This document shows, one piece after another, positions 3,938 through 33,347 of a stretch of 64,000 nt of DNA; the first letter of the stretch is position 1, and the number at the start of each line of letters is the position of its first letter. Under the pieces are notes generated by a model. It searched no databases. It had not been told where the DNA came from and was given only the letters and a program-made list of their open reading frames with translations. A program made the position numbers and the translations under genes. The DNA is taken from positions 3,946 to 67,945 of IMG/VR virus record IMGVR_UViG_3300048576_000125; one strand, written 5' to 3'. The stretch is from a virus (Duplodnaviria; Caudoviricetes).

Positions 3938-4302
3938 CCGGCGAGGATGCCGCCCTGATCCTGGAACCGGTGTGGCAGGGCTTCGAGGCCGCCCAGGCCC
4001 GCATCCGGACCCTGCGGGAGGCCTTGAGCCCTGCCGCCGGCTTCAGCTCCTACACCCGGGAACTGTCGGACCTCCTGGAGGCGGAGCGCTTCCTGGGCAC
4101 GCTCCTGGGGCGCTTCCTGGACCCGGCCGGGGATGGGCTGCTGGTGGCCCTCCAGGTGGCGCACCAGGCACCCGCCACCTGGCCCAACGCCTACCCAGAC
4201 GCCCACGCCCGGGAGCGGGCCCTGGTCGCCTACTGGTCCCGCCGCTTCGAGGCGGACATGAACACGCCCATGCAGCCGCTTCGGAAGGCCTCGGGCGCTT
4301 GA
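3934..4302 (+). CDS. Hypothetical protein, 122 aa
   Basis: ATGA overlap; protein-like composition. Confidence 0.6.
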   Translation: MTGEDAALILEPVWQGFEAAQARIRTLREALSPAAGFSSYTRELSDLLEAERFLGTLLGRFLDPAGDGLLVALQVAHQAPATWPNAYPDAHARERALVAYWSRRFEADMNTPMQPLRKASGA

Positions 4303-10174: not shown

Positions 10175-10636
10175 TTAGGCCCTAAAACCATATGTATTTT
10201 TGACGCGAATAGACCTCATAAGATATAATGACCAAATCGTTGGGGTAATAAACGACGCCATTAGCTCTGGAAGCATTGGCTCGAATTTCATGCCTTCAAA
10301 GATATAAAGCCTCGATGCTACAACTAACAGTTTTGATATAGGTCCAGCAATCCAAAGGGCGCAGATTGCAAAGATTACACTCTTGGGTGTGTAAATTCTC
10401 CAAAGACGCCACCCAGATGCGATACTAATCGTAATTGCGAATAACATAATAGCTAAAGCCGCTTGTCGGTAGCGCATCCATTGGATATTTTGCGAAAATA
10501 GTTGGAATTTTCCAGCAGTGTTTTCGAATTCTGACATAAAATTGCCAATTCTTGTCAGAGGACCTAGAATCGTCATTATAATTGTCAAAAGCAATAGCCA
10601 ACCCGAGACGCCCTTAAGTATCTTATTTGTAGACAT
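10175..10636 (-). CDS. Membrane protein, DUF2569-like, 153 aa
   Basis: GVSGWLLLL start, 4 hydrophobic helices, YL-x2-S-x-RVKNT C-terminus; AAGGAG RBS; AT-rich. Confidence 0.7.
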   Translation of the reverse strand: MSTNKILKGVSGWLLLLTIIMTILGPLTRIGNFMSEFENTAGKFQLFSQNIQWMRYRQAALAIMLFAITISIASGWRLWRIYTPKSVIFAICALWIAGPISKLLVVASRLYIFEGMKFEPMLPELMASFITPTIWSLYLMRSIRVKNTYGFRA

Positions 10637-10648
10637 TGTGGCTCCTTG

Positions 10649-10707
10649 TGCTAACGAAACAACTTCGAAAACCAGAGGCGGCATCCAACTTTAGCTCGCG
10701 GTTAGAC
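10649..10707 (-). other. Degenerate 59-bp attC-like site
   Basis: GTCTAAC...GTTAGCA ends 59 bp apart, but the inner L boxes do not pair well. Confidence 0.3.
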
Positions 10708-10722
10708 AGTATAGGAAATTGC

Positions 10723-10769
10723 ATAAAACACCAAAGAAGCAAGGACCAAATGGTCCATGTTTCTTTGGT
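10723..10769 (-). terminator. Hairpin terminator downstream of the Ada-domain gene
   Basis: ACCAAAGAA..GGACC/GGTCC..TTCTTTGGT stem followed by GTTTT on the minus strand. Confidence 0.55.
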
Positions 10770-10781
10770 TTTGGCAAGATG

Positions 10782-10985
10782 TTACGGCCGACAGTAGGAA
10801 CAGGGGCGATATCCAGCATCAATCGCCGCTTGGCGATTGGAAAAACCAACGCGATGGTCAGGCTTAATTTGGGTTACATACCGGCAAGTGGACTGATGAA
10901 AAACTTTGGAGCTGCGGTTGCCAACATAGCTCCCGTATTGAAGAAGGAGTGTGGTGGCAGCGAGAACTGCGAGTCGCACAATCAT
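10782..10985 (-). CDS. Stand-alone Ada-type metal-binding domain protein, 67 aa
   Basis: YVGN-x2-SKVFH-x3-C...AIDAGYRPC-x2-C-x-P signature; hydrophobic N-terminus; GGGAG RBS. Confidence 0.8.
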   Translation of the reverse strand: MIVRLAVLAATTLLLQYGSYVGNRSSKVFHQSTCRYVTQIKPDHRVGFSNRQAAIDAGYRPCSYCRP

Positions 10986-11065
10986 GCGTGTCTCCCTTAC
11001 ATGAAGTTTCGTTCTTCTACAATACTGACTGTAGGTAAAATGTGAAAATCACAAAAACAAAAGGC

Positions 11066-11151
11066 ATCTAACGACTGACATAACCGGACCAACAGCCGCA
11101 GGCTCTTGGTCAGAGCCATAGAAGTTGGCAGTGTTGATGGAGTGGTTAGGC
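11066..11151 (-). other. Integron attC site (86 bp), same polarity as its ORF
   Basis: Minus strand GCCTAAC-5nt-CATCAAC..GGTTATG-6nt-GTTAGAT; extrahelical C in the L'' box; 17 bp after the upstream stop. Confidence 0.8.
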
Positions 11152-11168
11152 CGCACGGGCTGTTAAAC

Positions 11169-12071
11169 TCAAGTTGGCATTGATTGTTGTATTTCTACAA
11201 CCCTTGGAATATGGTCCAAAACTTCGATGATCTCATAAGCCTCATTAACATAAATACCGGCTCCTGGCGACAATCTTTGCTTAACTCGCATGATTACTTT
11301 CAAACTATCTCCAGGAGCGATCGTGATTTCATGCGCGGCAAATTTTCTATAAAATTCCTGATGAAGAATCGGTGCTGAAATGGGAATGCCGCCCATTGAA
11401 AACTGCCAACGACGCTTTGACTTAGCTAAAACGGCCCGAAGAATTTGAACATCAGCATGTTCGGTGATTTCGCGAATGATTGGCTTCTCGTCACCGGCCA
11501 AAAGCGAAGCACGCTGGAGCCGCTCTCGCGGGATAGTAAGTTGTGGAACAGAATCATCCATGTTTCGCGCAAAACCGATGTATGCAACTTTTTCATCTTC
11601 TTCAACGGACTTCGACACGGCAGCAATGGATTGCGTAAACCTTTCATCCTTTTCGAGAGCCACGATGTGATCGTGAACATGACGAGGCACAATTATTTTT
11701 TCGCCTTCATGCTCGATTACGACTTCTGAAGAATTCACTGTAATCTCAATTTTTGAATCAGGTTGAAATGTGTGTATAAATATATAACTTGCAATAATAT
11801 TTAGCACGATATTTTTGAGACCCGCGCCAGAGAATAGATTGTTTTGATTTTGGAAATATGACGAAATTTTGGCTTTAAAACTCCCACTACCAATGGCTTC
11901 GACAACAATTTCAATTTCGTATCCAGGATTGATAGTGTCATTGGCCGCTTTCGCTGCATCTGCGAGGTTCGCCAATGTACTCGCTAGAGTGTAGGCATTA
12001 ATTCGGCGTTCTTCGGTTCCAAAATGGATAACAAAACTGTCCTCGAATTCTCCAATTCGAATCGTAGTCAT
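11169..12071 (-). CDS. Hypothetical protein, 300 aa (AT-rich cassette cargo)
   Basis: GGAGG RBS before ATG 12071; low GC; directly followed by attC. Confidence 0.8.
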   Translation of the reverse strand: MTTIRIGEFEDSFVIHFGTEERRINAYTLASTLANLADAAKAANDTINPGYEIEIVVEAIGSGSFKAKISSYFQNQNNLFSGAGLKNIVLNIIASYIFIHTFQPDSKIEITVNSSEVVIEHEGEKIIVPRHVHDHIVALEKDERFTQSIAAVSKSVEEDEKVAYIGFARNMDDSVPQLTIPRERLQRASLLAGDEKPIIREITEHADVQILRAVLAKSKRRWQFSMGGIPISAPILHQEFYRKFAAHEITIAPGDSLKVIMRVKQRLSPGAGIYVNEAYEIIEVLDHIPRVVEIQQSMPT

Positions 12072-12089
12072 TTCGCCTCCATGCATTCA

Positions 12090-12836
12090 TCACTTTGTGA
12101 GTTCGTTTTGTTTATCGAAGATCTGAATGTTCTCTTTTGCAATAATTGAAACATTGCTATTTTGTTCCCTTTTACGAGAAAGCAATCTCATCCCAGATGA
12201 CACAAGAGCGATTGACACAACAGAGATGACGGTCGGTAATACCGTGCTAATAAACTTCAATGCAGTATTTGCTGTTGGTGTGTAAATTTGTTTGCTTTGA
12301 GATACAAACATAAAAACCGACAACACGGCGACAACCAAACCAAGCATAATGCTTACAGATGTAAGCAAATTTGATCTATAGTCGCTATATACTGATTTGT
12401 TAAATATTTCGGATTCGTCTCGGCACCTCTGTTTATTTTCTTCTGTATTCGCTTGTTTTGGTGGATCGATAAGATCCGACAACATTTCACAATATCTATG
12501 TTTTTCTTTTGCGGATATGAAACTTGAATCCATAACTTCTTTGATAAGGTTTTGAAGAACCTGAACACTAGTTAGCAAGTCTCTCTTTTCGAGTTCATAC
12601 TTTCTAGCTGTAGCAACAATAACGCGAATTATAACCCGTTTAGTCGGCAAAATGCTTTCCGATATGCACGGCCGAATGGCATACAAAATCTCCTGATTAG
12701 CTATAGCGACTTTTTGTCGAAATTCCTTGTCGTCGCGTTTTGTTAACCATTTTTTTGAAAAAAAGGTAACAGCCAAACCGCTTAAGGTACCCCCGCCGAT
12801 CCCAACAACCCATGGGTTGTTAATAACTTCAATCAT
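12090..12836 (-). CDS. Hypothetical membrane protein, 248 aa (AT-rich cassette cargo)
   Basis: GGAGG RBS; N-terminal and two C-terminal hydrophobic helices; preceded by GTTAGGT core site (12858-12864, minus). Confidence 0.75.
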   Translation of the reverse strand: MIEVINNPWVVGIGGGTLSGLAVTFFSKKWLTKRDDKEFRQKVAIANQEILYAIRPCISESILPTKRVIIRVIVATARKYELEKRDLLTSVQVLQNLIKEVMDSSFISAKEKHRYCEMLSDLIDPPKQANTEENKQRCRDESEIFNKSVYSDYRSNLLTSVSIMLGLVVAVLSVFMFVSQSKQIYTPTANTALKFISTVLPTVISVVSIALVSSGMRLLSRKREQNSNVSIIAKENIQIFDKQNELTK

Positions 12837-13085
12837 TTGAAAGCCTCCTGGAAAGCGACCTAACTTTGAATCCGGCGACTGAATCTGGTTTGGTCCATAT
12901 CGGTCCTTTCCCCAGAGTCTCAGCCACTTCGAGTGGGTATTTGTGGGATTCATTTGTTCCCGCCCATCATAGCCACCCGAATCAGTTCATGGGAACCCCT
13001 TCGTTAGAGGCGTTTCCCATGTCCCCTTTGCCACACGAGGCCATGAGCGGCCACGGGCCTGGGAACGGGCGCCGATGCTGGCTTC

Positions 13086-23682: not shown

Positions 23683-23905
23683 GCGCCTGGGGCCCAAGTT
23701 TGGCAGCTGGGAACAAATCAAAAAGGTTAATCAAATCACAAGGGAAAAGCACGTCCCTTGCCTCCCATAAGCCAAGCCTTATGAGGAGGTCGATTTGTTG
23801 GCAGTTGCACCACGAGCGAAACGCCTTATCCTTCCGTCCGCTCCACCCGCAGGGAAGCCCTCGCGCAGCCTGAAACCCGCACCAGATGCGGGTCAGGGAG
23901 TTTCC

Positions 23906-24829
23906 ATGCGCCGTGCCTCGCGCTTCGCCAAGCGCCAGGGCCTCACCCTCGACGATGCCCTTCAAGCATTCTTGAAGGCCATCAACGTGAAGGGGAACAC
24001 GTTCCACTGGCTATTCCAGCAGGAGAAAATCCTGTTGGCATTCATCGCTTTCAGTGAATCCAATAGCGGACTCTATTACCTTGAGGACGCAGAGCCGCAT
24101 CACATGGATGCCTATCTGGATTTCTGCAAGAACGTGCGTGGAAATGGCCAGACCACGCTTCGAAACAAAGCGATCGTCATTCGCTCCTTTGCGCTCTACG
24201 CCTTGAAGTCTGGCTTGGTACCAAGATGCCGTCTCGCGTTCAGCGAAGTGCCCGCGGACAAGGCCGCCCCGGTGGACGTGGCGGACTATGACGCCTATCT
24301 GACGGCGATCAAGGCCTATGAAGGGTCGTACCGGGATGAGTTCCTGGTTCTGCTTGGGAGTGGCATGCGCCGGGGCGAGTTGATGAACCTGCGCTTCGTG
24401 GACATCAACCTGGATGCCGGAGAGTTGTACGTCCGGCGCCGGAGAGACTGGAGCCCAAAGAACCGGAAAGACCGGATTGTGGCCCTCACGGGCGAGGCCA
24501 GGGAGGCCCTGGCGCGCATCGTGGAGCGGCGCCGGAAGCCTGGCCACATGGGCCCCTACCTGGATGAGCAGGGCAAGCCGACGCTCTATCCCACGACCCT
24601 CAGCCACGCTTGGGTGAAGTTCGTGCGGAGCATCGGTTTACCCACGCGGATCCACGCCCTACGCCATGCCCACGCCACCAAGGCCGTGAACTCCGGGGCG
24701 ATCCTCCCTGATGTCCAGGCGCAGCTGGGGCACAGCGACATCCGCGTGACGATGCGCTATGTGCGGCCCAACAGCGCCGGCCCCCGGCGTGTCATTGCCG
24801 CGATCAGCGGGGAGGACAGGAAGGGGTAG
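23906..24829 (+). CDS. int: Tyrosine integrase of the 22.6-kb element, 307 aa
   Basis: SGMRRGEL (R), SPKNRK (K), IHALRH (HxxR), LGHSD, TMRYV (Y); GGGAG RBS; points toward att. Confidence 0.92.
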   Translation: MRRASRFAKRQGLTLDDALQAFLKAINVKGNTFHWLFQQEKILLAFIAFSESNSGLYYLEDAEPHHMDAYLDFCKNVRGNGQTTLRNKAIVIRSFALYALKSGLVPRCRLAFSEVPADKAAPVDVADYDAYLTAIKAYEGSYRDEFLVLLGSGMRRGELMNLRFVDINLDAGELYVRRRRDWSPKNRKDRIVALTGEAREALARIVERRRKPGHMGPYLDEQGKPTLYPTTLSHAWVKFVRSIGLPTRIHALRHAHATKAVNSGAILPDVQAQLGHSDIRVTMRYVRPNSAGPRRVIAAISGEDRKG

Positions 24830-24872: not shown

Positions 24873-24974
24873 CTGGGCACTGCACCTGATTGCGAACTCC
24901 GGAGACCAGTGCCCACTGAAATTTTTTAAAAGAAAAAAAGGTGCCGGTTTTTTCAACGCAGCACCCTTGTGTCA

Positions 24975-25021
24975 ATTGGTGGTCCCGGAGCGATTCGAAC
25001 GCCCGACCCTCAGATTCGTAG
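24975..25021 (-). repeat. att core copy 2: 3' half of tRNA-Arg(ACG)
   Basis: Identical 47 bp to 2353-2399; identity stops at the 5' edge of the anticodon loop. Confidence 0.9.
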
Positions 25022-25125
25022 TTGTGTACCTGGGGGGAAATGGGTGGAATCGGGGACTGATTGGTGCCGTAAGTCCTGATTTTACACTAGGGGGCTGAAA
25101 TGCCTACCCCAGGAATCCCGAAGCT

Positions 25126-25174: not shown

Positions 25175-26443
25175 ATGCCGAGAGCGAAGGCCGCCCAGCC
25201 AGTTCGCATCACCAAGAAGGTGGCCGACACCTGGTTTCCCCCCGAAGGGAAGGCGGACGGCTACCTGTGGGACACGGACCTCCGTGGGTTCGGGCTGCGG
25301 GTTCGGGACGGGGCGCGCACCTTCGTGATGCGCTGGACCCCGAAGGGCGAGAAGACCAGGCAGGATTCCGTGGGCAGGGTGGGGGAGCTGACGCCCGATG
25401 AAGCCCGGGCCAAGGCCGAAGGGCTGCGGGACGCGGTGAAGAACGGGAACGACCCGCGGAAGCCGAGCCCCGCCGGGAAGACCGTGAAGGACATGCTCGA
25501 CCGCTTCGAGGCGGAATACCTGCCCCTGAAGAAGCCCCGCACGGGAGCGAACTACAAGTACCTGGCCCTGAAGGTGAACGCCGCCATCGGTTCGCTGGAG
25601 GTTGAGCACCTGGAGGTGAAGCACATCGCCCAGGTCCACGACAGCCTGCGCGACACACCCCGGACGGCGAACCACGCCATCGCCATGTTGAGCCGGGCCC
25701 TGAACCTGTCCGAGTCCTGGGGCTGGAGGCCGCTGGGGTCCAACCCCATCTCCGCCTGGCGCAGGGTGGGGGGCATGTTCCAGGAGACGAAGCGGGAGCG
25801 CTTCCTGGATGCCGATGAGCTCCGCCGCCTGTTCGCCGCGATCCGTGAGGCGGGCCAGCCCAGGGAGAGCCGGAAGCGGAACCAGGAGAAGGACCGGGAC
25901 CACGGGCGCAACCCGGCGGCGTTGGCGGCCCTGCGCCTCCTGATCTACACCGGCATGCGGAAGGGTGAGGTGGTGGCCCTGAAGTGGGCGGACCTGCGCC
26001 TGGATGCCGCCCGCCCGCACATCCAGCTCACCGAGCACAAGACGTCCGGCACCATGGGGGTGAAGCTGATCCCCTTGAACGCCCCGGCCCTGGCGGTGCT
26101 GCGGGGCCTGGAAGCAAGCAAGCTGTCCAAGTGGGTCTTCCCGGCTACCTATGCCGAGCCGGAGAAGCGGGGCCGGAAGGTCACGGGGCACATGAGCACG
26201 GCCCTGGACCGGACCTGGCAGGCGGTGCGGAAGCTGGCCAAGCTGGAGGACGTCCGAATCCACGACCTGCGCCACACCTTCGCCAGCATCGGGATCAACG
26301 CGGGGATCGACCTGAAGCGCCTGGGCGGGGGTCTCCTGGGGCATGCGGACCAGAAGACGACCGAGCGGTACGCGCACCTCGCCCTGGCCACCAGCCTGGA
26401 GGATTCGGAGACCATCGGGGCCATCATCGCCAAGGCAGAGTGA
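25175..26443 (+). CDS. int: Prophage tyrosine integrase with N-terminal arm-binding domain, 422 aa
   Basis: YLWDTDLRGFGLRV arm-binding start; TGMRKGE, IHDLRHTFAS, LGH, TERYAH. Confidence 0.95.
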   Translation: MPRAKAAQPVRITKKVADTWFPPEGKADGYLWDTDLRGFGLRVRDGARTFVMRWTPKGEKTRQDSVGRVGELTPDEARAKAEGLRDAVKNGNDPRKPSPAGKTVKDMLDRFEAEYLPLKKPRTGANYKYLALKVNAAIGSLEVEHLEVKHIAQVHDSLRDTPRTANHAIAMLSRALNLSESWGWRPLGSNPISAWRRVGGMFQETKRERFLDADELRRLFAAIREAGQPRESRKRNQEKDRDHGRNPAALAALRLLIYTGMRKGEVVALKWADLRLDAARPHIQLTEHKTSGTMGVKLIPLNAPALAVLRGLEASKLSKWVFPATYAEPEKRGRKVTGHMSTALDRTWQAVRKLAKLEDVRIHDLRHTFASIGINAGIDLKRLGGGLLGHADQKTTERYAHLALATSLEDSETIGAIIAKAE

Positions 26444-26467: not shown

Positions 26468-26770
26468 TCATCCCGTTGGCCTGAACCGCTGGGCTTCGGT
26501 GGTGGACTTCCTGCGCCGGGTCTTCGCCCATTCGTCCAGGTCCGCGGGCCGGTAGACGATCCGGGCCCCGATCTCAACGAAGGGCGGGCCGCCGCCGGAG
26601 ACGCGCAGGTTGGCCAGGGTCTTCCCGCTGATGCCCAGGAGCTCCCCGGCGCGGGCCTCGGACACGGTGACGTCTCCGCAGCGCAGGGCTTGGACGTGGG
26701 CCTCCATGTCGCCCACGCGGGCATCCAGCATCTCGGCCACGATGGCGCGGATAGCTTCGTCCAGGGGCAT
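26468..26770 (-). CDS. Excisionase/AlpA-like HTH protein, 100 aa
   Basis: EARAGELLGISGKTLANLR..GPPFVEIG..IVYRPADLDEW; convergent on int. Confidence 0.8.
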   Translation of the reverse strand: MPLDEAIRAIVAEMLDARVGDMEAHVQALRCGDVTVSEARAGELLGISGKTLANLRVSGGGPPFVEIGARIVYRPADLDEWAKTRRRKSTTEAQRFRPTG

Positions 26771-26947
26771 GGCGTCAGCCCTCCACCTTGTCGGGGTTCT
26801 TGGGGATGCGCTTGGGGGTGGTGGTGGTCATAACGTGTCCTTTCGTCTCATTACCTTGTTTTCAGGCGTTGTGTCGGTTGATCACGTTTTACTTACATTG
26901 AGACTGACGTTTGGTTTGGCGGATTCGTTAGGTCGCCTAATTGAAAG

Positions 26948-27259
26948 TTAGGCCTGTTCAGCATTCGGAAAATTGGGGTTCGGGATGGTTTCATCTTCGA
27001 TGTTCACGGCCTGGATCATCGGTATCCCATCGTCAACCCAAGTGAAGGTATCCAGTGCATATCCCGTCTCGCGTTGCACCTTGCGGAACTCGAACAAACA
27101 GCAGACAAACTCCTGAATACAAGCGGAAAGCCGATCATCCGGCACATTGGCAAAGTCAGCGATTGAAACAATGTGATATTCGGCAGGGCCTAACCCGTCG
27201 CTCAACCTTGACGCTGCCTCTTCCGGCAACCCCCCGGAATTTCCGGATACTTCAACCAT
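26948..27259 (-). CDS. Cassette ORF A copy 1, 103 aa
   Basis: AAAGGAG RBS and ATG lie inside attC; TAA supplied by the core site. Confidence 0.7.
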   Translation of the reverse strand: MVEVSGNSGGLPEEAASRLSDGLGPAEYHIVSIADFANVPDDRLSACIQEFVCCLFEFRKVQRETGYALDTFTWVDDGIPMIQAVNIEDETIPNPNFPNAEQA

Positions 27260-27313
27260 TTCATCTCCTTTGGGCGCTACGCAGGGCAGCGCGGGTTAGC
27301 TTCGTCGTTAGGC
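27188..27313 (+). other. attC site (126 bp)
   Basis: GCCTAAC-5-GCTCAACC...GGTTAGC-6-GTTAGGC; extra C in L''. Confidence 0.85.
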
Positions 27314-27565
27314 GAATCGCGCCGTGACAGGGTGAGATTCAAGTTTCCTGGCGATGTCTTCCAGCTTCGCCAGATTTTCAGGGATGCAATGCTCACACTC
27401 AGTAATGCTGTCCCATTCCTCTTCGATCATTCTGGTAATGCCTTCCTTGAACCTCTTAACCAACTCGGTTCCACGTTGCGCCTCGTTGTATTCCAGCACC
27501 ACGGGGATGTTGCACTTTTCTCCATCGTTATTCGTTCCCCAAGCTGTCCATGTGTAAATCCTCAT
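27308..27565 (-). CDS. Cassette ORF B, 85 aa
   Basis: ATG 1 nt from the attC edge; stop in the core site. Confidence 0.7.
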   Translation of the reverse strand: MRIYTWTAWGTNNDGEKCNIPVVLEYNEAQRGTELVKRFKEGITRMIEEEWDSITECEHCIPENLAKLEDIARKLESHPVTARFA

Positions 27566-27566
27566 C

Positions 27567-27663
27567 GCCTAACCCCTGCATCAACTCGGACGCTACAGCC
27601 GCGATCCGATTGGTTTCTTCAACGTCCGGCTGGCTGTAGCGCCGGTTATGCCCATCGTTAGGC
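27567..27663 (+). other. attC site (97 bp)
   Basis: GCCTAAC-5-CATCAAC..CGGACGCTACAGCC/GGCTGTAGCGCCG..GGTTATG-6-GTTAGGC; two extrahelical bases. Confidence 0.9.
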
Positions 27664-27969
27664 CTGTTCAGCATTCGGAAAATTGGGGTTCGGGATGGTT
27701 TCATCTTCGATGTTCACGGCCTGGATCATCGGTATCCCATCGTCAACCCAAGTGAAGGTATCCAGTGCATATCCCGTCTCGCGTTGCACCTTGCGGAACT
27801 CGAACAAACAGCAGACAAACTCCTGAATACAAGCGGAAAGCCGATCATCCGGCACATTGGCAAAGTCAGCGATTGAAACAATGTGATATTCGGCAGGGCC
27901 TAACCCGTCGCTCAACCTTGACGCTGCCTCTTCCGGCAACCCCCCGGAATTTCCGGATACTTCAACCAT
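27658..27969 (-). CDS. Cassette ORF A copy 2, 103 aa
   Basis: Identical protein to 26948-27259. Confidence 0.7.
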   Translation of the reverse strand: MVEVSGNSGGLPEEAASRLSDGLGPAEYHIVSIADFANVPDDRLSACIQEFVCCLFEFRKVQRETGYALDTFTWVDDGIPMIQAVNIEDETIPNPNFPNAEQA

Positions 27970-28023
27970 TTCATCTCCTTTGGGCGCTACGCAGGGCAGC
28001 GCGGGTTAGCTTCGTCGTTAGGC
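27898..28023 (+). other. attC site (126 bp)
   Basis: Identical to 27188-27313. Confidence 0.85.
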
Positions 28024-28278
28024 CGCTCGATTTTCATACCAAGCAGCGTCAAAGGCCCGCATGGCTTTGTCGGGCGAATCCCCAAACCCGGCAACGCCGT
28101 TCTGAAGATCATCACCATAAAGGGCGCACCATTGGTCCCCGTCCATGAAGATCCTTGGCTTGAACACCACAGCAGGACGGCAGTATTCCTGCTGCATGGT
28201 TTCGGCGGTCATCCTCGCCGCGTGGCAGATCGCGTCCATCACTACGTCCTGTCGGTTGTAATCCAAAACCTGTTCCAT
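28018..28278 (-). CDS. Cassette ORF C, 86 aa
   Basis: AAGGAAAGGA RBS; DGDQWCALYGDDLQNGVAGFGDSP segment; stop in the core site. Confidence 0.75.
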   Translation of the reverse strand: MEQVLDYNRQDVVMDAICHAARMTAETMQQEYCRPAVVFKPRIFMDGDQWCALYGDDLQNGVAGFGDSPDKAMRAFDAAWYENRAA

Positions 28279-28305
28279 GGCATCATCCTTTCCTTTCGTT
28301 TCGCG

Positions 28306-28364
28306 GCCTAACCCGCCGCTTCAACCCGGACGGCATAGCCGCCGGTTAAGCGCAATCGTTAGGC
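28306..28364 (+). other. attC site (classic 59-base element)
   Basis: GCCTAAC-CCGCC-GCTTCAACC..GGTTAAGC-GCAATC-GTTAGGC. Confidence 0.92.
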
Positions 28365-28595
28365 GGCACTTTCAATTTGTTTCAGAAGAGCATGGATAGC
28401 CTTCTCCCTGTCGCGTTCCCATCGCCCTTGCCCTGAGTTCCAGCTATCGTGAGCCGGAAAATGCAACTTCAGCAGCCGTTCCAGCCCTTCAACAAGCACA
28501 CGCAGTTCTTCCGCCCGAGTGCTGCCTAACCCGTCGCTCAACCTTGACGCTGCCTCTACCGGCAACTCATCAGCTTTGCTTACAAGTTCATCCAT
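28359..28595 (-). CDS. Cassette ORF D, 78 aa
   Basis: AAAGGAG RBS and ATG inside attC; shares AASRLSDGLG with ORF A. Confidence 0.7.
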   Translation of the reverse strand: MDELVSKADELPVEAASRLSDGLGSTRAEELRVLVEGLERLLKLHFPAHDSWNSGQGRWERDREKAIHALLKQIESAA

Positions 28596-28650
28596 TTCGT
28601 CTCCTTTGGGCGCCACGCTGGGCAGCGCCGGTTAACTCCACTCGTTAGGC
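28524..28650 (+). other. attC site (127 bp)
   Basis: Same arms as the 126-bp sites, different loop. Confidence 0.8.
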
Positions 28651-28652
28651 GC

Positions 28653-28820
28653 CTACTTCCTGCCGAGCAAAACACGGGCTTTCTGGGCGTTCTCATTCAG
28701 CCAAACATTCGGCAATGTGTGCCCTTCGATGTCATCCAAGAGCTTCCCGATCAAAGCCTTGAGTTCAGAGTTTTCCTTTCTTAACTTTCCAATCACATGC
28801 AAATCCATTTCGCTCTGCAT
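28653..28820 (-). CDS. Cassette ORF E, 55 aa (not in ORF track)
   Basis: MQSEMDLHVIGKLRKENSELK..; ATG placed exactly as in ORF B relative to the 97-bp attC. Confidence 0.55.
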   Translation of the reverse strand: MQSEMDLHVIGKLRKENSELKALIGKLLDDIEGHTLPNVWLNENAQKARVLLGRK

Positions 28821-28821
28821 C

Positions 28822-28918
28822 GCCTAACCCCTGCATCAACTCGGACGCTACAGCCATCGTCCGATTGGTTTCTTAAACGTCCGGCTGGCTGTAGCGCCGG
28901 TTATGCACAACGTTAGGC
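28822..28918 (+). other. attC site (97 bp)
   Basis: Near-identical to 27567-27663. Confidence 0.9.
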
Positions 28919-29122
28919 GCCCTCTTCTTCCCACCCGCAGTCCCAGGAGAAGCGGTCATGGGTTCCGTCCTGGTAGGGGTTTGTGTTCTTCGGGTGGCCA
29001 TATTCCCTCGCCCTCGCCCCAGCTAGCGCCGGCGGAAGGAGCACGAGTTCCTTCCCACAGGAGGTGCACCTGAAGTCGGGGCTCATCTCGTCGTGGTGGC
29101 AGCGTCGTGCGTCAGCAGGCAT
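28913..29122 (-). CDS. Hypothetical protein, about 69 aa
   Basis: Overlaps the MTase stop; ends in TAA of the attC core; start uncertain. Confidence 0.5.
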   Translation of the reverse strand: MPADARRCHHDEMSPDFRCTSCGKELVLLPPALAGARAREYGHPKNTNPYQDGTHDRFSWDCGWEEEGA

Positions 29123-30065
29123 GGGGGACCTCAGCCAGCCCGGCAACGCGGTGCAGCAGGGCGGTGGCGACGGGCGGGCACACGGCGTTGCCCAGGAGGT
29201 ACTTGTCCGTCCGGCTCTTGCCGGTGAGGCGGTAGTCCTCCGGGAATCCCATGGCGCGCCTGCACTCGTCCACCGTAAGGAAGCGGAAGCGGTCCCCGTG
29301 GACCAGGGCGTAGCGGTCCCGGGTGGTGATCGTCCAGATGGGCACGTCCAGTCCCCATCCCCGGCGGTTGGAGCCGAAGTAGGGGATCCAGAAGGGCCGG
29401 TCCCCGAAGGCCTCACGTCCTGCGGCAATGCGGGCCTTCGTGGCGGGGACCAGAGGGCGGAGTCCCTGGCGCACCCGGAGCACATCAGCCACGGGGTGCC
29501 AGTCCCCGGAATCGAGGTCCACGGCCTCGCGGATCGGGCGCACCCGCTGCCCGCCCAGGCCAGCGAAGTCGAAGGCCGGCCCGGTGGTGGCCACGAGGAA
29601 GAGGCGCTTGCGGAGCTGCGGCACGCCGAACTGGCAGGCGTCCAGCACCTCCGCCCGGAGGGCGTAGCCCAGGGCCTCCAGCGCGGAACACCACGCCGGG
29701 AACAGGGCCCACAGCGCGAACTCCGGGACGTTCTCCACCACCACGAAGGGCGGGCGGTGGCACTCCGCGGCGGAGACGACAGCCCAGGCGGTGGCGCGGG
29801 CGGCGTCGTGGTGCGGGCGGTCCTTCCCGCGGGCCCGGCTGTGCCCCTGGCAGCATGGGGAGGCCAGGAGAACGTCATGGGCCGGGACCTTGGTCCAGTC
29901 GGCCTGGTGGAGGTCCTGGCACAGGTGAGCCGTACCCGGGTGGTTCCGCTCGTGGACGGCCACGGCCTCGGGCCAGTGGTTCGCCGCCCAGACGACGGTG
30001 AGCCCTGCGGCCCTGGCGCCTTCGCTGAATCCGCCGGCTCCGGCGAAGAGGTCGATGCACCTCAT
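29112..30065 (-). CDS. DNA cytosine-5 methyltransferase, 317 aa
   Basis: DLFAGAGG (I), SPCCQGHS (IV), VENV (VI), GFP (IX), LGNAV (X). Confidence 0.92.
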   Translation of the reverse strand: MRCIDLFAGAGGFSEGARAAGLTVVWAANHWPEAVAVHERNHPGTAHLCQDLHQADWTKVPAHDVLLASPCCQGHSRARGKDRPHHDAARATAWAVVSAAECHRPPFVVVENVPEFALWALFPAWCSALEALGYALRAEVLDACQFGVPQLRKRLFLVATTGPAFDFAGLGGQRVRPIREAVDLDSGDWHPVADVLRVRQGLRPLVPATKARIAAGREAFGDRPFWIPYFGSNRRGWGLDVPIWTITTRDRYALVHGDRFRFLTVDECRRAMGFPEDYRLTGKSRTDKYLLGNAVCPPVATALLHRVAGLAEVPHAC

Positions 30066-30117
30066 CTCCGTCCCTCCCTGACCGCCGCTCTGAGGTCCTG
30101 GGGGTGCATTCGGTCGT

Positions 30118-30609
30118 TCATGCGGCTGCCTCCTTCGGCATGTCGGGGATGGGCTGGCCAAGCTGCCTGGCGCGTTGCTCCGCCTTCCAGCGGTAGGTGG
30201 AGGCCTGGTAGCGGTAGCGCTGGGCCAGTCTTGGGTCTTTGGTGGCTTCGGCCTTGCGCAGCAGGGCGCGCATGCGGTCGGCAAGCTGTTCTGCTGTGAG
30301 GCCCCGGTACTTGCGGACGCGGGCGTTGAGGGGCGTGGTGCGGGGCAGGGCGTCGACAGGGCGCCACTTCGCCCCCACGCCCAGGCGCTTGACCAGTTCC
30401 AGCTCATCCCGGAGGGCGCAGAGTTCCCGGGCGATGCCGCGGTAGAGCCGTTCCTGGTCCTTGGGGGCTCCGGGGGCAAGGGCGATCAGGGGGTCAGGGC
30501 GGAGCTTCTGGAGCTCCGCGATGCGGGCCTGGATCCACTCCGCCGTGTGAAGGCGGGAGTAGTCCACGGGGCTGTCCACCACGGGAAGCTGGTAGTTGGG
30601 GAGGCTCAT
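30118..30609 (-). CDS. Hypothetical phage protein, 163 aa
   Basis: ATGA coupling in the early-left operon. Confidence 0.6.
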   Translation of the reverse strand: MSLPNYQLPVVDSPVDYSRLHTAEWIQARIAELQKLRPDPLIALAPGAPKDQERLYRGIARELCALRDELELVKRLGVGAKWRPVDALPRTTPLNARVRKYRGLTAEQLADRMRALLRKAEATKDPRLAQRYRYQASTYRWKAEQRARQLGQPIPDMPKEAAA

Positions 30610-30887
30610 GCGATCTTCTCCGCCTGGATGGGGACGGCGTAGCGCTCCCGGGCCCAAGCCGGGACGATGGCGCCCGTGGTGGTGCAGTAGCGGCGCGTGG
30701 TCTCACGGATGCGCCGAGCGTTCCTGGGGTTGTCCGCGATGCAGCGGGAGTAGCGGACGGCGTAGCGGGCGATGCGAGCAACCATGGGGCTGCGCGCCTG
30801 GGTGGCCTCTTCGTAGACCTCCAGGCACGGGTCGCAGAAGGCGGCGTCCTGGATGGCCTCGCGCTCCCCGCAGAGCTGGCACTTCAC
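30606..30887 (-). CDS. Hypothetical Cys-motif protein, 93 aa
   Basis: CQLC..CDPC; coupled to neighbours. Confidence 0.6.
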   Translation of the reverse strand: MKCQLCGEREAIQDAAFCDPCLEVYEEATQARSPMVARIARYAVRYSRCIADNPRNARRIRETTRRYCTTTGAIVPAWARERYAVPIQAEKIA

Positions 30888-31020
30888 TTCGCACCCCCGT
30901 TCTCCGGCCCGTGCGGGTTCTGGGAGACGCGGGGCTCGTCCTTCCCCTCCGGCGCGGAGGCGACAAGGGCCATCAGGGCGAGGATGAAAAGGGCGATGAT
31001 GAGCTTCCAGAGGTCATCCA

Positions 31021-31248
31021 TCACAGCCCCGCGACACGCCCGAGGGCGGCGTCAATCTCTCCAGCAGGCACCAGGCCAGGGAGAGGGGTGGAGGTGGTGG
31101 CAGGGACGGGGATGAAGTAGCGCTTGGCGTGTTCCAGGGCCTCTTCAGGCGTGTCGCGGAACTCGCCCCGGTAGACCTCCCGCCCCTCTTCGGTGACGGA
31201 CGGGAGGTAGCCGTAGTCGGTGACGTGGTCGATGCGGAGGGTGCGCAT
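31021..31248 (-). CDS. Hypothetical phage protein, 75 aa
   Basis: In operon, protein-like. Confidence 0.55.
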   Translation of the reverse strand: MRTLRIDHVTDYGYLPSVTEEGREVYRGEFRDTPEEALEHAKRYFIPVPATTSTPLPGLVPAGEIDAALGRVAGL

Positions 31249-31250
31249 GG

Positions 31251-32102
31251 TTAGGCCTCAGTAGTTGCCGGCGTGAGCTTCAGCACTTCCTCTTCCAGGT
31301 CGCGGATGGTGCCCTTGTCGTCGCCCACGTTCCGCTTGGGGTTCCACTTGTCCTGGAACGTGCTCCAGTGCTCACCCAGCCCGTCCCGCTGGAAGGCGGA
31401 GAAGGCCTGGTCCACCAGCTCATCGAAGCGCTCCAGGGACGCGATAGGCCAGGAAGCGGGCGGGGCCTGGGGCTCCAGGGTGTGGGTGATGACGGGCTTC
31501 CCGGCGGGCACCACCTCGGCTTCGGTGAAGTCCTGCACCTCATCGGAGGTCGGCAGGCCCATGCTCAGTTCGGGGGCGATGGTGTTGATGAACCACGCCG
31601 CGGAGCGGTAGCGGAGCATCTGGTCCGGCATGGACTGCCACTTCGAGCCGTTCTTCCCGAACCAGCCTTCCTTCTTGGCGATGGCGATGGTCACGAGGGG
31701 GCCTACCAGCTTCTCCCCCGTGGCCTTCTCGGTCGCCCAGGCCCGGCACCCGTAGCTGTCCGTCCCGGGCTCCCCCTCCATCTGGTAGCGGATCGCGGTG
31801 AAGCGCCCGCACTGATTGAAGGTGGCAATCAGGAACTTGGAAGACCAGCTCGGGCGGCCCTGCACCACGTAGAGGTTCTGCATGACCATCAGCGGGTCCG
31901 CCTGGAGGCGGGACGCGAGGTTCAGGGCGATCACGCAGGAGGGCAGGCCCTTGTCACCCTGGAAGGTGGTGGGGACCAGCGGGGAGCACGACAGGAGCTT
32001 GGCGCAGCGCTGGATGGCGGCGAAGCCCTGCACGGTGTTCATGTCCATGCGGATGACTTCGTTGGGCTGCTCGATGGTGGCGGGGGTCATGGGTTCGCTC
32101 AT
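31251..32102 (-). CDS. RecT-like single-strand annealing protein, 283 aa
   Basis: MVMQNLYVVQGRPSWSSKFL..WQSMPDQMLRYRS motifs of phage recombinases. Confidence 0.75.
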   Translation of the reverse strand: MSEPMTPATIEQPNEVIRMDMNTVQGFAAIQRCAKLLSCSPLVPTTFQGDKGLPSCVIALNLASRLQADPLMVMQNLYVVQGRPSWSSKFLIATFNQCGRFTAIRYQMEGEPGTDSYGCRAWATEKATGEKLVGPLVTIAIAKKEGWFGKNGSKWQSMPDQMLRYRSAAWFINTIAPELSMGLPTSDEVQDFTEAEVVPAGKPVITHTLEPQAPPASWPIASLERFDELVDQAFSAFQRDGLGEHWSTFQDKWNPKRNVGDDKGTIRDLEEEVLKLTPATTEA

Positions 32103-32917
32103 TAGCGGCCTCCAATGGAATCGACGGTGTAGAACTCAACGCCGGGCACCTTGGCGTTCTCCTTCTGGTCCCGGGCGATCTGGCCAAGAAGCTGCTCGTT
32201 GGGGACCATGAACTCGCGGGGGATGGCGTTCACGTCCACCACCCGGGCCTTCCAGGTGCGGCGCAGGCTGGTCCCGGCGGCTGTGACCTTGGGGGGCAGC
32301 GCGGCGGCAACGCTCTGGCCCGCCATGGCAGCCAGCCGCAGGTTGTCCTCGGCGGCCTTCAGGGCAGCCTGGGCCCCAGCCTCGGCGCGGGCGGCCTCTT
32401 CCTGGGCCAGGAACGCAGCCACGGGGCTCTGCGCCGTCTCCGCCTTCTGGTGGGCCTCTTCGGCAGCCTTGCGCTCGGCTTCCTGGCGGCGCAGCTCTTC
32501 TTCCGCCCTGGCGCGGGCCTCGGCAGCGCGGGCCTCAGCTTCCTTCCGGGCGGCCTCTTCCGCTTCCTTCCGCTTCCGCTCTTCCTCGCGCTGGAAGGCC
32601 AGCATGGGGGCTTCGATCACCTTGAGCACGGCTTCGAGCTGCGCGGTGAGGGCCTTGTAGTCCTCGTTGATGAGTTTCACCGTGTCGTTCAGCGGCTTCA
32701 CGCGCTTCACGCGGGCGGCCTCGACCTCCTTGATCTTGGCCTTGATGTCGGCGAAGAAGTGGCCGGCGACGCGGTAGCTGTCGGCGTCGATGACGCGGAG
32801 GCCCTTGGCGTATTCGAGCAGGCCATTGGCCTCGGTTCGGAGGGCCTGGGTTTCGTCGTCGGGCTGCGCCGCAAGGGCGGACGTGCCGGAGACGCGGAGG
32901 GGGGTGACTTCGCTCAT
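32102..32917 (-). CDS. Coiled-coil phage protein (Gam/Gp157-like neighbourhood), 271 aa
   Basis: Long heptad region; C-terminal WKARVVDVNAIPREF..VPGVEFY; next to the recombinase. Confidence 0.6.
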   Translation of the reverse strand: MSEVTPLRVSGTSALAAQPDDETQALRTEANGLLEYAKGLRVIDADSYRVAGHFFADIKAKIKEVEAARVKRVKPLNDTVKLINEDYKALTAQLEAVLKVIEAPMLAFQREEERKRKEAEEAARKEAEARAAEARARAEEELRRQEAERKAAEEAHQKAETAQSPVAAFLAQEEAARAEAGAQAALKAAEDNLRLAAMAGQSVAAALPPKVTAAGTSLRRTWKARVVDVNAIPREFMVPNEQLLGQIARDQKENAKVPGVEFYTVDSIGGR

Positions 32918-33132
32918 GCTGTTGGCTCCAGAGGGAAGAGGGGCCGGGCCCCGTTGATCTCGTTGATGGCGGCCTCGTATGCGTCCAGGGCGGCTTGGTC
33001 GGACGGCTCCCAGAGCTCTTGGGGGGCGAGGTCGATTCGGGCGTCTGCCTCTTGGGCCTGCTGCGCGGTGCGCTGGAACAGGCGGAGGCGGGAGGCCATG
33101 AGGGCGGCTGCGTTGCGGAGGGCGGCGCTCAT
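32914..33132 (-). CDS. Hypothetical protein, 72 aa
   Basis: ATGA couplings on both sides. Confidence 0.55.
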   Translation of the reverse strand: MSAALRNAAALMASRLRLFQRTAQQAQEADARIDLAPQELWEPSDQAALDAYEAAINEINGARPLFPLEPTA

Positions 33133-33347
33133 GCGGCCAACCCCAGCTCACGGCGCTGCCGACGCCGGACCTTGTAGCGGGCGGGAATCCAGCCGGTTCC
33201 GCCGCAGTGGTCGCAGTCGTCGTGCTCGATGTAGTTGCCCCGCTCATCGTGGTGGACGGACTGGAACACGCCCCGGCCCTTGCAGAACGGGCAGGGATCG
33301 GCGCGCCGCTTCCAGCCGTCGGAGGGCTCGTAGGTCTCGCGGGCCAT
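33129..33347 (-). CDS. CxxCxGxG zinc-finger protein, 72 aa
   Basis: CPFCKGRG and CDHCGGTG. Confidence 0.6.
   Translation of the reverse strand: MARETYEPSDGWKRRADPCPFCKGRGVFQSVHHDERGNYIEHDDCDHCGGTGWIPARYKVRRRQRRELGLAA

Follow-up and report, generated by a model that had tools for sequence, protein, structure and literature searches.

Integrons are seen as bacterial devices in which promoterless genes, each followed by an attC recombination site, are inserted for reading by the promoter Pc. The locus described here raises the question of what an array of attC-bearing cassettes is doing in a prophage when every one of its genes points the other way. The window, by which we mean the whole stretch of 64,000 nucleotides that was analysed, covers positions 3,946 to 67,945 of the IMG/VR virus record IMGVR_UViG_3300048576_000125 (Caudoviricetes), and the array forms a low-GC island at positions 26947-28918 of it (53-56% GC vs ~68% in the surrounding phage DNA). 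Our preferred reading, which we hold to be fairly probable, is that the array is an integron platform without an integrase gene of its own, located in the early-left operon of a temperate prophage, whose reversed cassettes are drawn from a phage-associated pool and moved in trans by the integron integrase (IntI) of the host.

The array is marked out by seven GTTAGGC boxes, starting at 26947, 27307, 27657, 28017, 28358, 28644 and 28912, and six GCCTAAC boxes, starting at 27188, 27567, 27898, 28306, 28524 and 28822. These boxes define six imperfect hairpins, at 27188-27313, 27567-27663, 27898-28023, 28306-28364, 28524-28650 and 28822-28918, with sizes of 59, 97 and ~126 nt. The hairpins have the architecture of attC sites, namely inverse core sites of the form RYYYAAC/GTTRRRY, L boxes, extrahelical bases in one arm, an unpaired central spacer and a variable loop, and compensatory stem changes are seen between attC alleles. 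A strict hairpin finder run over the 64 kb returned these six attC sites only. All six lie within 1.7 kb on the + strand, an arrangement that fits what IntegronFinder calls a cluster of attC sites lacking an integron integrase (CALIN), for which we used the criterion that a minimum of two attC sites lie within 4 kb on the same strand. The cassettes and their open reading frames (ORFs) are as follows, with scores from the covariance model described below.

26948-27307: cassette 1, with attC1 at 27188-27313 (+) and ORF c1 at 26948-27259 (-), 103 aa; 44.8 bits
27308-27657: cassette 2, with attC2 at 27567-27663 (+) and ORF c2 at 27308-27565 (-), 85 aa; 40.1 bits
27658-28017: cassette 3, an exact duplicate of cassette 1, with attC3 at 27898-28023 (+) and its ORF at 27658-27969 (-)
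28018-28358: cassette 4, with attC4 at 28306-28364 (+), 59 nt, and ORF c4 at 28018-28278 (-), 86 aa; 42.4 bits
28359-28644: cassette 5, with attC5 at 28524-28650 (+) and ORF c5 at 28359-28595 (-; or 28359-28616), 78 aa from the ATG; 40.9 bits
28645-28912: cassette 6, with attC6 at 28822-28918 (+) and ORF c6 at 28653-28820 (-), 55 aa; 37.0 bits

The six ORFs, five of them unique and one an exact duplicate, fill the cassettes and are all on the - strand. In five of the six the stop codon is a TAA formed by the R' box, as it likewise is in the flanking gene orf69. The unit 26947-27313 is repeated exactly at 27657-28023, the copy ending inside GTTAGGC boxes, with 100% identity both between 26947-27246 and 27657-27956 and between 27188-27301 and 27898-28011. 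This duplication, the occurrence of c2 in seven contexts and the array of a related provirus (both described below) identify the cassettes as discrete units bounded after the first G of GTTRRRY. The six attC sites of the window are confirmed as genuine.

The polarity of these sites was tested in four ways. The initial annotation had placed all six on the + strand from their geometry, and the boxes, the spacing and the covariance model confirm that call. On the + strand of every site R'' is followed after 5 nt by an L'' with an extra C, and more extra bases lie in the same arm; then comes L', a spacer of 6 nt and R', with the exception of attC5, whose L'-R' spacer is 7 nt. The strand that is recombined, the bottom strand, is reported to be recognisable by extrahelical bases in the arm facing the AAC cleavage triplet, and to be the one that folds more stably (PMC5027507). 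In the window the - strand gives the more stable fold at all six sites. The attC of aadA1 on plasmid R100 (query matched 100%), which lies just after the gene, shows the same asymmetry on the coding strand. We took 43 canonical attC sites from betaproteobacterial arrays with sense ORFs and built a covariance model on them. It placed each of the six attC sites of the window on +, with scores of 37-45 bits (E from 2e-8 to 2e-6), and, as expected, called the aadA1 control on the coding strand; nhmmer with an 84-nt attC profile failed to detect the long sites of the window. On the Holophaga chromosome OY760195.1, more than 130 native attC sites match the + strand of the window sites in the same orientation, and the cassettes of that array have sense ORFs.

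Where the mobile unit begins and ends bears on the same question. The block that contains c2 is shared with seven other contigs. Read in the direction of the gene, it opens with a GCCTAAC box, continues over the upstream hairpin and then the ORF, and closes at the GCCTAAC box that follows; outside it the sequences are unrelated, and the downstream hairpin varies with the neighbour. Because the block spans the upstream hairpin and the ORF, the hairpin belongs to the gene that lies 3' of it in the direction of transcription, and the c2 mobile unit is the reverse of a canonical cassette. Since geometry, covariance model, co-linearity with a native integron and mobile-unit boundaries agree independently, we take + to be the canonical top strand. 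In the canonical layout the ORF is on the attC top strand and the attC lies 3' of the gene; here all six ORFs are on the bottom strand and the attC lies 5'. Inversion of canonical cassettes through top-strand recombination was considered and rejected, as it would flip the attC too, yet the attC sites are not inverted.

Genome contigs and viral contigs were both scanned with one attC half-site pattern. One of the counts leaves out, besides the window, a related provirus, G003, and the arrays of contigs L162 and L169, to which we return below. The counts of cassettes with sense and antisense ORFs were as follows.

Betaproteobacterial chromosomal arrays, longest ORF per cassette: 34 sense, 1 antisense
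Integron of Holophaga OY760195.1, codon model: 120 sense, 1 antisense, 41 undecided
Integron of Holophaga OY760195.1, uniform ORF-length rule: 57 sense, 4 antisense
Arrays of chromosomes and metagenome-assembled genomes, uniform ORF-length rule: 80 sense, 13 antisense
Viral contigs, uniform ORF-length rule: 1 sense, 10 antisense
Viral contigs minus the window, G003, L162 and L169, sites called by the covariance model, from a recount of per-cassette rows: 5 sense, 22 antisense

By the rules used, the antisense share in the native Holophaga integron is ~1-7%. Judged from predicted ORFs, chromosomal arrays of this attC family are overwhelmingly sense, and those on viral contigs are mostly antisense and run along phage operons. 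Two of the viral arrays lie in one-directional phage operons, which in contig L188 read VapE-like, Pam3 gp33/34-like, RNase T, array, Pol III alpha and SNF2, and in contig L195 read DnaB, RecA-dependent nuclease, array, M15 peptidase, D12 methylase and terminase; in both, the cassette ORFs are co-directional with the phage genes.

The ends of the array are formed by three features.

26927-26953 (+): attI-like site, consisting of GTTAGGT, then GCCTAAT (L-like), a 5-nt spacer and GTTAGGC (R box, with the cassette 1 junction after its first G)
26841-26946 (no strand assigned): conserved flank without coding sequence, bordering the array on its top-strand 5' side; its counterpart in G003 is 74% identical
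28913-29122 (-): orf69, a GC-rich phage gene that forms the right array boundary; its stop is the TTA of the last R' box, and it has a weak RMF-like Pfam match

The attI-like site is identical in G003 and L162. The native attI of Holophaga, adjoining IntI, reads GCCTAAT-ACTTA-GTTAGGC at the first-cassette junction, which is the same position, and L188 has TCTAAT-ACAAA-GTTAGGC at the same array end. We therefore describe the top-strand 5' end of the window array as a putative attI site that matches the Holophaga attI core. For the 56 nt of segment 26898-26953, the last of which belong to the first R' box, identity to the end of metagenome array L162 is 94.6%, although the adjacent cassette is a different one there. 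At the other boundary, the orf69 region agrees with the right flank of G003 at 99.5% identity over 222 nt, as against ~73% for the neighbouring genes of the two proviruses, and because of this difference the attI-like site, the array and orf69 may travel together as one module. In orf69 itself the N-terminus appears Zn-ribbon-like by eye, and the weak RMF-like match is C-terminal. In contig L156, a short odd element at 1714-1770 follows c2 (GCCTAAC-GAGTATTAGGCGAAC...GCCTAAC) and resembles an attI-like L box within an array.

The initial annotation had named an array that stays invariant across relatives as part of the outcome that would speak against its proposal, and had called for a survey of related prophages. 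Such invariance is not what is seen, since both G003 and the contexts of c2 differ. In provirus G003 (IMGVR_UViG_3300048576_000525) the flank on the right is the same and that on the left is homologous, but the array between them holds three cassettes vs the six of the window; c1 alone is common to the two arrays, at ~95% nucleotide identity. An identical c2 protein is encoded on seven other contigs and has at least five different neighbours in metagenome contigs, where it lies downstream of c6 or of genes for 104, 107 or 186 aa and upstream of c1-like or other genes; in contig L160, an identical c6 protein is encoded directly upstream of c2. L162 carries an array of at least eight cassettes, including YdaE and D12 methylase, and L169 carries cassettes that include Lar in an array upstream of a D5-type primase; all genes of both arrays are antisense to the attC calls. 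Contigs from wastewater runs cover single cassettes and break at attC, and one of them joins 27663 to 28642, placing c6 beside c2; most joints had short sides and were not used. The c1 sequence is present in one metatranscriptome, from which neither strand nor transcription can be read.

Other searches for relatives returned little. No GenBank phage was matched by megablast with the 24 kb around the array, the search for related loci by the phage integrase gave one distant relative only, and the exact-flank pattern was not found among the metagenome contigs searched. In 133 species genomes of the probable host family, orf69, c1 and c2 were not found, a search that had no positive control and so is weak evidence of absence. 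The last attC of G003 (locus L177, 6443-6571), which scores 22 bits with the covariance model, has the 5' half of the c1 attC, but its 3' half is unrelated and no longer pairs. Crossovers at R' alone do not explain this hybrid, which may be a scar holding the cassette where it is.

Several of the cassette genes have relatives that lack an attC. Homologues of c1 range from 95 to 55% identity. Residues 1-24 of c1 are encoded by the attC, and an 80-aa relative, P0128, which sits in an attC-free phage-like operon, begins at c1 residue 25, exactly where c1 leaves the attC. The c1 core is found with two leader variants, which R' crossovers alone do not explain. For c4 there are 679 homologues, in attC-free phage early regions beside ERF/YqaJ recombination genes, and the nearest ESM Atlas clusters are 83-100% viral; a profile search of the c4 family against the PDB found no relative, and an AlphaFold model (pLDDT 88) gave no significant fold match in the PDB or BFVD. 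By homology, c1 and c4 are members of ordinary phage early-gene families. The relatives of the c5 core are 55-63 aa long and are without the first ~24 residues, the attC-encoded leader. Pfam and PHROG searches of the cassette proteins were uninformative, with no toxin or antitoxin domain matches. A codon-usage log-odds model trained on Holophaga cassettes was strand-undecided for the short ORFs of the window, and one + ORF, in cassette 2, scored higher.

In the direction of these genes the hairpins carry what look like translation signals. The long attC loop has an AAGGAG ribosome-binding site and an ATG and encodes a leader peptide with the consensus LPxEAASRLSDGLG, which extends across the L'' and R'' boxes. 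In attC sites of 97 nt the ATG stands one base past the R'' box, and the unpaired spacer gives a G-rich stretch. Because the attC-free relatives of c1 and c5 start after the attC-encoded part, we take the loop of the long sites to carry the start signals and the leader. P0131, a predicted protein of 2258 aa, matches the attC-encoded c5 leader at 19 separate places, probably because the gene call read across a long array of cassettes.

The surroundings of the array are those of a temperate phage.

25175-26443 (+): phage integrase of the lambda type; Pfam Arm-DNA-bind_3 and Phage_integrase; 36 bits with TIGR02249, against a cut-off of 265
26468-26770 (-): excisionase-like helix-turn-helix gene, the last of the leftward operon; Pfam HTH_17; PHROG 66, excisionase/regulator
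26787-26840: 17-codon ORF that precedes the excisionase-like gene
29131-30479 (-): C5 DNA methylase (Dcm); Pfam DNA_methylase
Within 29131-33247 (-): small ORFs among the upstream genes of the leftward operon
31251-32102 (-): RecT-like gene; PHROG match
32102-33247 (-): exonuclease; PHROG match
35-36 kb: repressor-like genes
Beyond the repressors (+): genes for a DnaB-like helicase, terminase, head and tail

Read leftward, the order is exonuclease, RecT, Dcm, orf69, array and excisionase, and it is this order, together with the strands of the flanking genes, that places the array in the leftward early operon, a region in which small accessory genes of phages are usually found. ORF and domain analysis thereby bears out the earlier statement that the six ORFs are on the - strand in line with the early-left operon of a prophage. 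No terminator-like site lies within the array, vs 3.4 expected, and a scan with the sigma-70 consensus, which may not apply to this phylum, found no promoter, nor a candidate for a Pc that would read into the array on the top strand. The absence of intI, noted previously for the window, holds for the whole 67.9-kb record, in which TIGR02249 detects two phage-type integrases only (26-36 bits), and IntI is absent from G003 as well. The record thus lacks the intI with an IntI-specific domain that defines a complete integron, and the recombinases near the array are lambda-type integrases with arm-binding domains only.

A candidate source of IntI is the host. One conserved locus of the Holophagaceae (e.g. 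684910-684996 of OY760195.1) has 90-95% identity to two stretches of the window, an 87-nt sequence at 2313-2399 and a 57-nt repeat of it at 24967-25023. Because these att-like repeats match a conserved locus of that family, the host is probably a Holophagaceae (Geothrix/Holophaga-like) acidobacterium. The repeats resemble the att repeats of an element of 22.6 kb, whose last gene is the integrase at 23795-24829 and which the tailed prophage follows in tandem; ARAGORN found no tRNA at the repeats. The initial annotation had suggested searching the host for intI; in the probable host family, IntI above the curated cut-off is present in 84 of 133 species genomes. In Holophaga OY760195.1, the IntI gene at 742470-743411 (-), which scores 465 bits with TIGR02249, is followed by an array of ~83 kb on +, with ~163 attC sites. 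Within that array (744044-826828, loci L151-L155) a cassette of ~396 bp recurs ~25 times, and the rules used did not settle which of its strands is coding. A purine-rich, Shine-Dalgarno-like motif occurs on the bottom strand of 90 of 106 attC loops of the array.

The platform that we propose would consist of the attI-like site and the six attC cassettes, with the attC top strand on + and the genes on the bottom strand. Since the genes lie on the attC bottom strand, the hairpin stands in front of each gene, not behind it. There it would provide each gene with its ribosome-binding site, and the long sites would in addition contribute the start codon and a leader of 24 residues. Transcription of the leftward phage operon would read through the array toward the excisionase gene. 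Host IntI, acting in trans, would excise cassettes by attC x attC recombination and insert them at the attI-like end, and the differing sets and orders of cassettes in related phages are proposed to arise from such excision and insertion. The pool from which they come would be phage-associated rather than host chromosomal and would include typical early accessory genes of phages and, in related arrays, Lar, D12 methylase and YdaE. Catalysis by IntI, expression from a phage promoter and the roles of the cassette genes are what we infer in this scheme.

The proposal of the initial annotation that the phage shuffles small early genes through host IntI has in part held up, because comparative predictions drawn from it (variable arrays, an attI-like site, IntI in the family, the direction of the operon and no terminator) agree with what was found. 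One point needs changing: the cassettes are unlike a sample selected from host chromosomal cassettes, as two are of phage-family genes and c1 and c2 did not turn up in the 133 family genomes. A separate phage-associated pool of reverse cassettes fits better, given these absences, the phage gene families and the rarity of antisense cassettes in the native integron.

A more speculative extension, which we regard as possible but rather unlikely, is that phages of integron-bearing bacteria maintain a private 'reverse integron', in which an attI-like site is paired with a mirror-oriented pool, the attC hairpin is a 5' translation start module, shuffling is coupled to induction, and the cassettes of phage and host are each silent in the array of the other. 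Here the coding (non-template) strand of the phage operon would be the recombinogenic bottom strand, so that, whenever the early operon is transcribed, IntI would find its substrate exposed. In known systems intI is switched on by the SOS response. SOS would then induce host intI and the prophage together, tying shuffling to induction, and shuffling at that moment would diversify the accessory or anti-defence genes of the progeny. Reversal would silence phage cassettes in the host integron and host cassettes in the phage.

Simpler histories have to be weighed against the platform reading. The array could be a passive CALIN, formed when host chromosomal cassettes landed by chance at a secondary GTT site, with antisense ORFs that are coincidental or spurious and no gain to the phage. 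CALINs are common and can arise by secondary-site insertion (PMC4889954), they have already been reported in phages (PMC9892861), and the GC content of the cassettes is integron-like and well below that of the phage. Yet all five unique cassettes are antisense where native arrays of the same family are ~90-99% sense, and the same reversed orientation recurs in other viral contigs. Nor would a chance landing account for cassettes such as c1 and c2 that were not found in 133 family genomes, for two genes of phage families, for an attI-like flank common to arrays with different first cassettes, or for start signals built into the hairpins, and we judge it improbable. We give slightly less credence to movement by a recombinase other than IntI, for example a phage-encoded one, or by homologous recombination between the repeated hairpins, with the likeness to attC a matter of inheritance only. 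That intI is in neither the record nor G003 agrees with such a route, and the inner-hairpin swaps (see below) and the hybrid last attC of G003 look like homologous or illegitimate exchange; against this, the nearby recombinases are all arm-binding and lambda-type, the units end at R' boxes as for IntI, and all attC features of the host-family integrons are kept, with an attI-like site present.

It is also conceivable that the polarity call is wrong, so that the - strand is the functional top strand and the cassettes are ordinary sense cassettes. On that strand each ORF does stop in an R''-like GCCTAAC box, and c2 and c6 start one base after GTTAGGC. But geometry, covariance model, fold energies, co-linearity with the native integron and unit boundaries all give + as the top strand, and with - as the top strand the starts of c1 and c5 would fall within the cassette next to them; we consider this error very improbable. 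The reading of an integrase-less platform served by host IntI has weak points of its own. The ORF-length rule left many cassettes undecided and made some false calls. The relatives of c2 and c6 are identical copies only, and the case for both being coding relies on how well the ORFs fit, on conservation and on gene calls. For c1, dN/dS values of 0.23-0.56 leave the frame of the ORF indistinguishable from one antisense frame, and the ribosome-binding sites within the hairpins are predicted to be no more than moderately accessible. Between otherwise identical c2 cassettes the inner hairpin stem and loop differ by compensatory changes, for which an R' crossover alone is insufficient. The IntI of the record's own host, finally, is assumed from relatives.

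Arrays of attC sites in phages have a precedent. CALINs and a few complete integrons occur in phage genomes, and IntI1 was able to recombine some of the attC sites found there (Qi et al. 2023, PMC9892861). The arrays of that paper are like the present one in lacking intI, and some have DNA methyltransferase genes; two arrays of virulent phages are said to be oriented like typical bacterial arrays, and a third has divergent attC sites. Compared with the CALINs described there, the window array differs in having every gene antisense, translation signals in the hairpins, an attI-like site and members of phage early-gene families. The sedentary integron of the Holophagaceae (OY760195.1) has the same attC family (97- and ~125-nt types), the same R boxes and the attI core GCCTAAT-N5-GTTAGGC; it differs by its own IntI and its sense ORFs (120:1 and 57:4), and no cassette is common to it and the window.

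Vibrio superintegrons contain reverse-oriented toxin-antitoxin cassettes, opposite to attC polarity in co-oriented arrays, and these are a minority of two-gene modules with their own promoters that stabilise the array. The window array is like them in that its genes run opposite to attC polarity, but the whole array is reversed, the cassettes hold single small ORFs without toxin-antitoxin domains, and they are in line with a phage operon. Toxin-antitoxin cassettes with their own promoters are mentioned elsewhere (PMC11023631), and promoter-facing cassettes have been described as absent from sequenced integrons (PMC5027507). IntI is also reported to insert cassettes at secondary or genomic sites (PMC4889954, citing earlier work), for which the term attG is used (PMC12901181). 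Such insertions resemble the window array in that cassettes lie outside an integron platform at a GTT-containing site and would depend on local promoters; the window site, however, is not a bare GTT, as it has an attI-like L-R architecture that is kept between phages and matches the attI of the host family. A literature search with incomplete journal coverage found no paper on phage arrays uniformly antisense to attC, or on attC as a 5' translation module.

The window array and the similar viral arrays present a design opposite to that of the usual integron, with phage-type genes. Chromosomal cassettes are rich in anti-phage defences (bioRxiv 10.1101/2024.07.02.601686), and if it is true that phages shuffle early genes by host IntI, integron recombination would be a two-sided tool in the conflict between phage and host. 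Reversed cassettes would also offer a testable case of a cassette built 5' of its gene, which bears on the origin of cassettes, and annotation pipelines that assume sense orientation will mis-annotate such arrays.

A second low-GC block (~42%) occupies 10175-12953 of the window, inside or next to the other integrated element, and is a canonical sense cassette region. It contains a further attC at 11066-11151, which the covariance model calls on the - strand with 21.5 bits, and the ORFs at 11169-12086 and 12090-12953 are also on the - strand.

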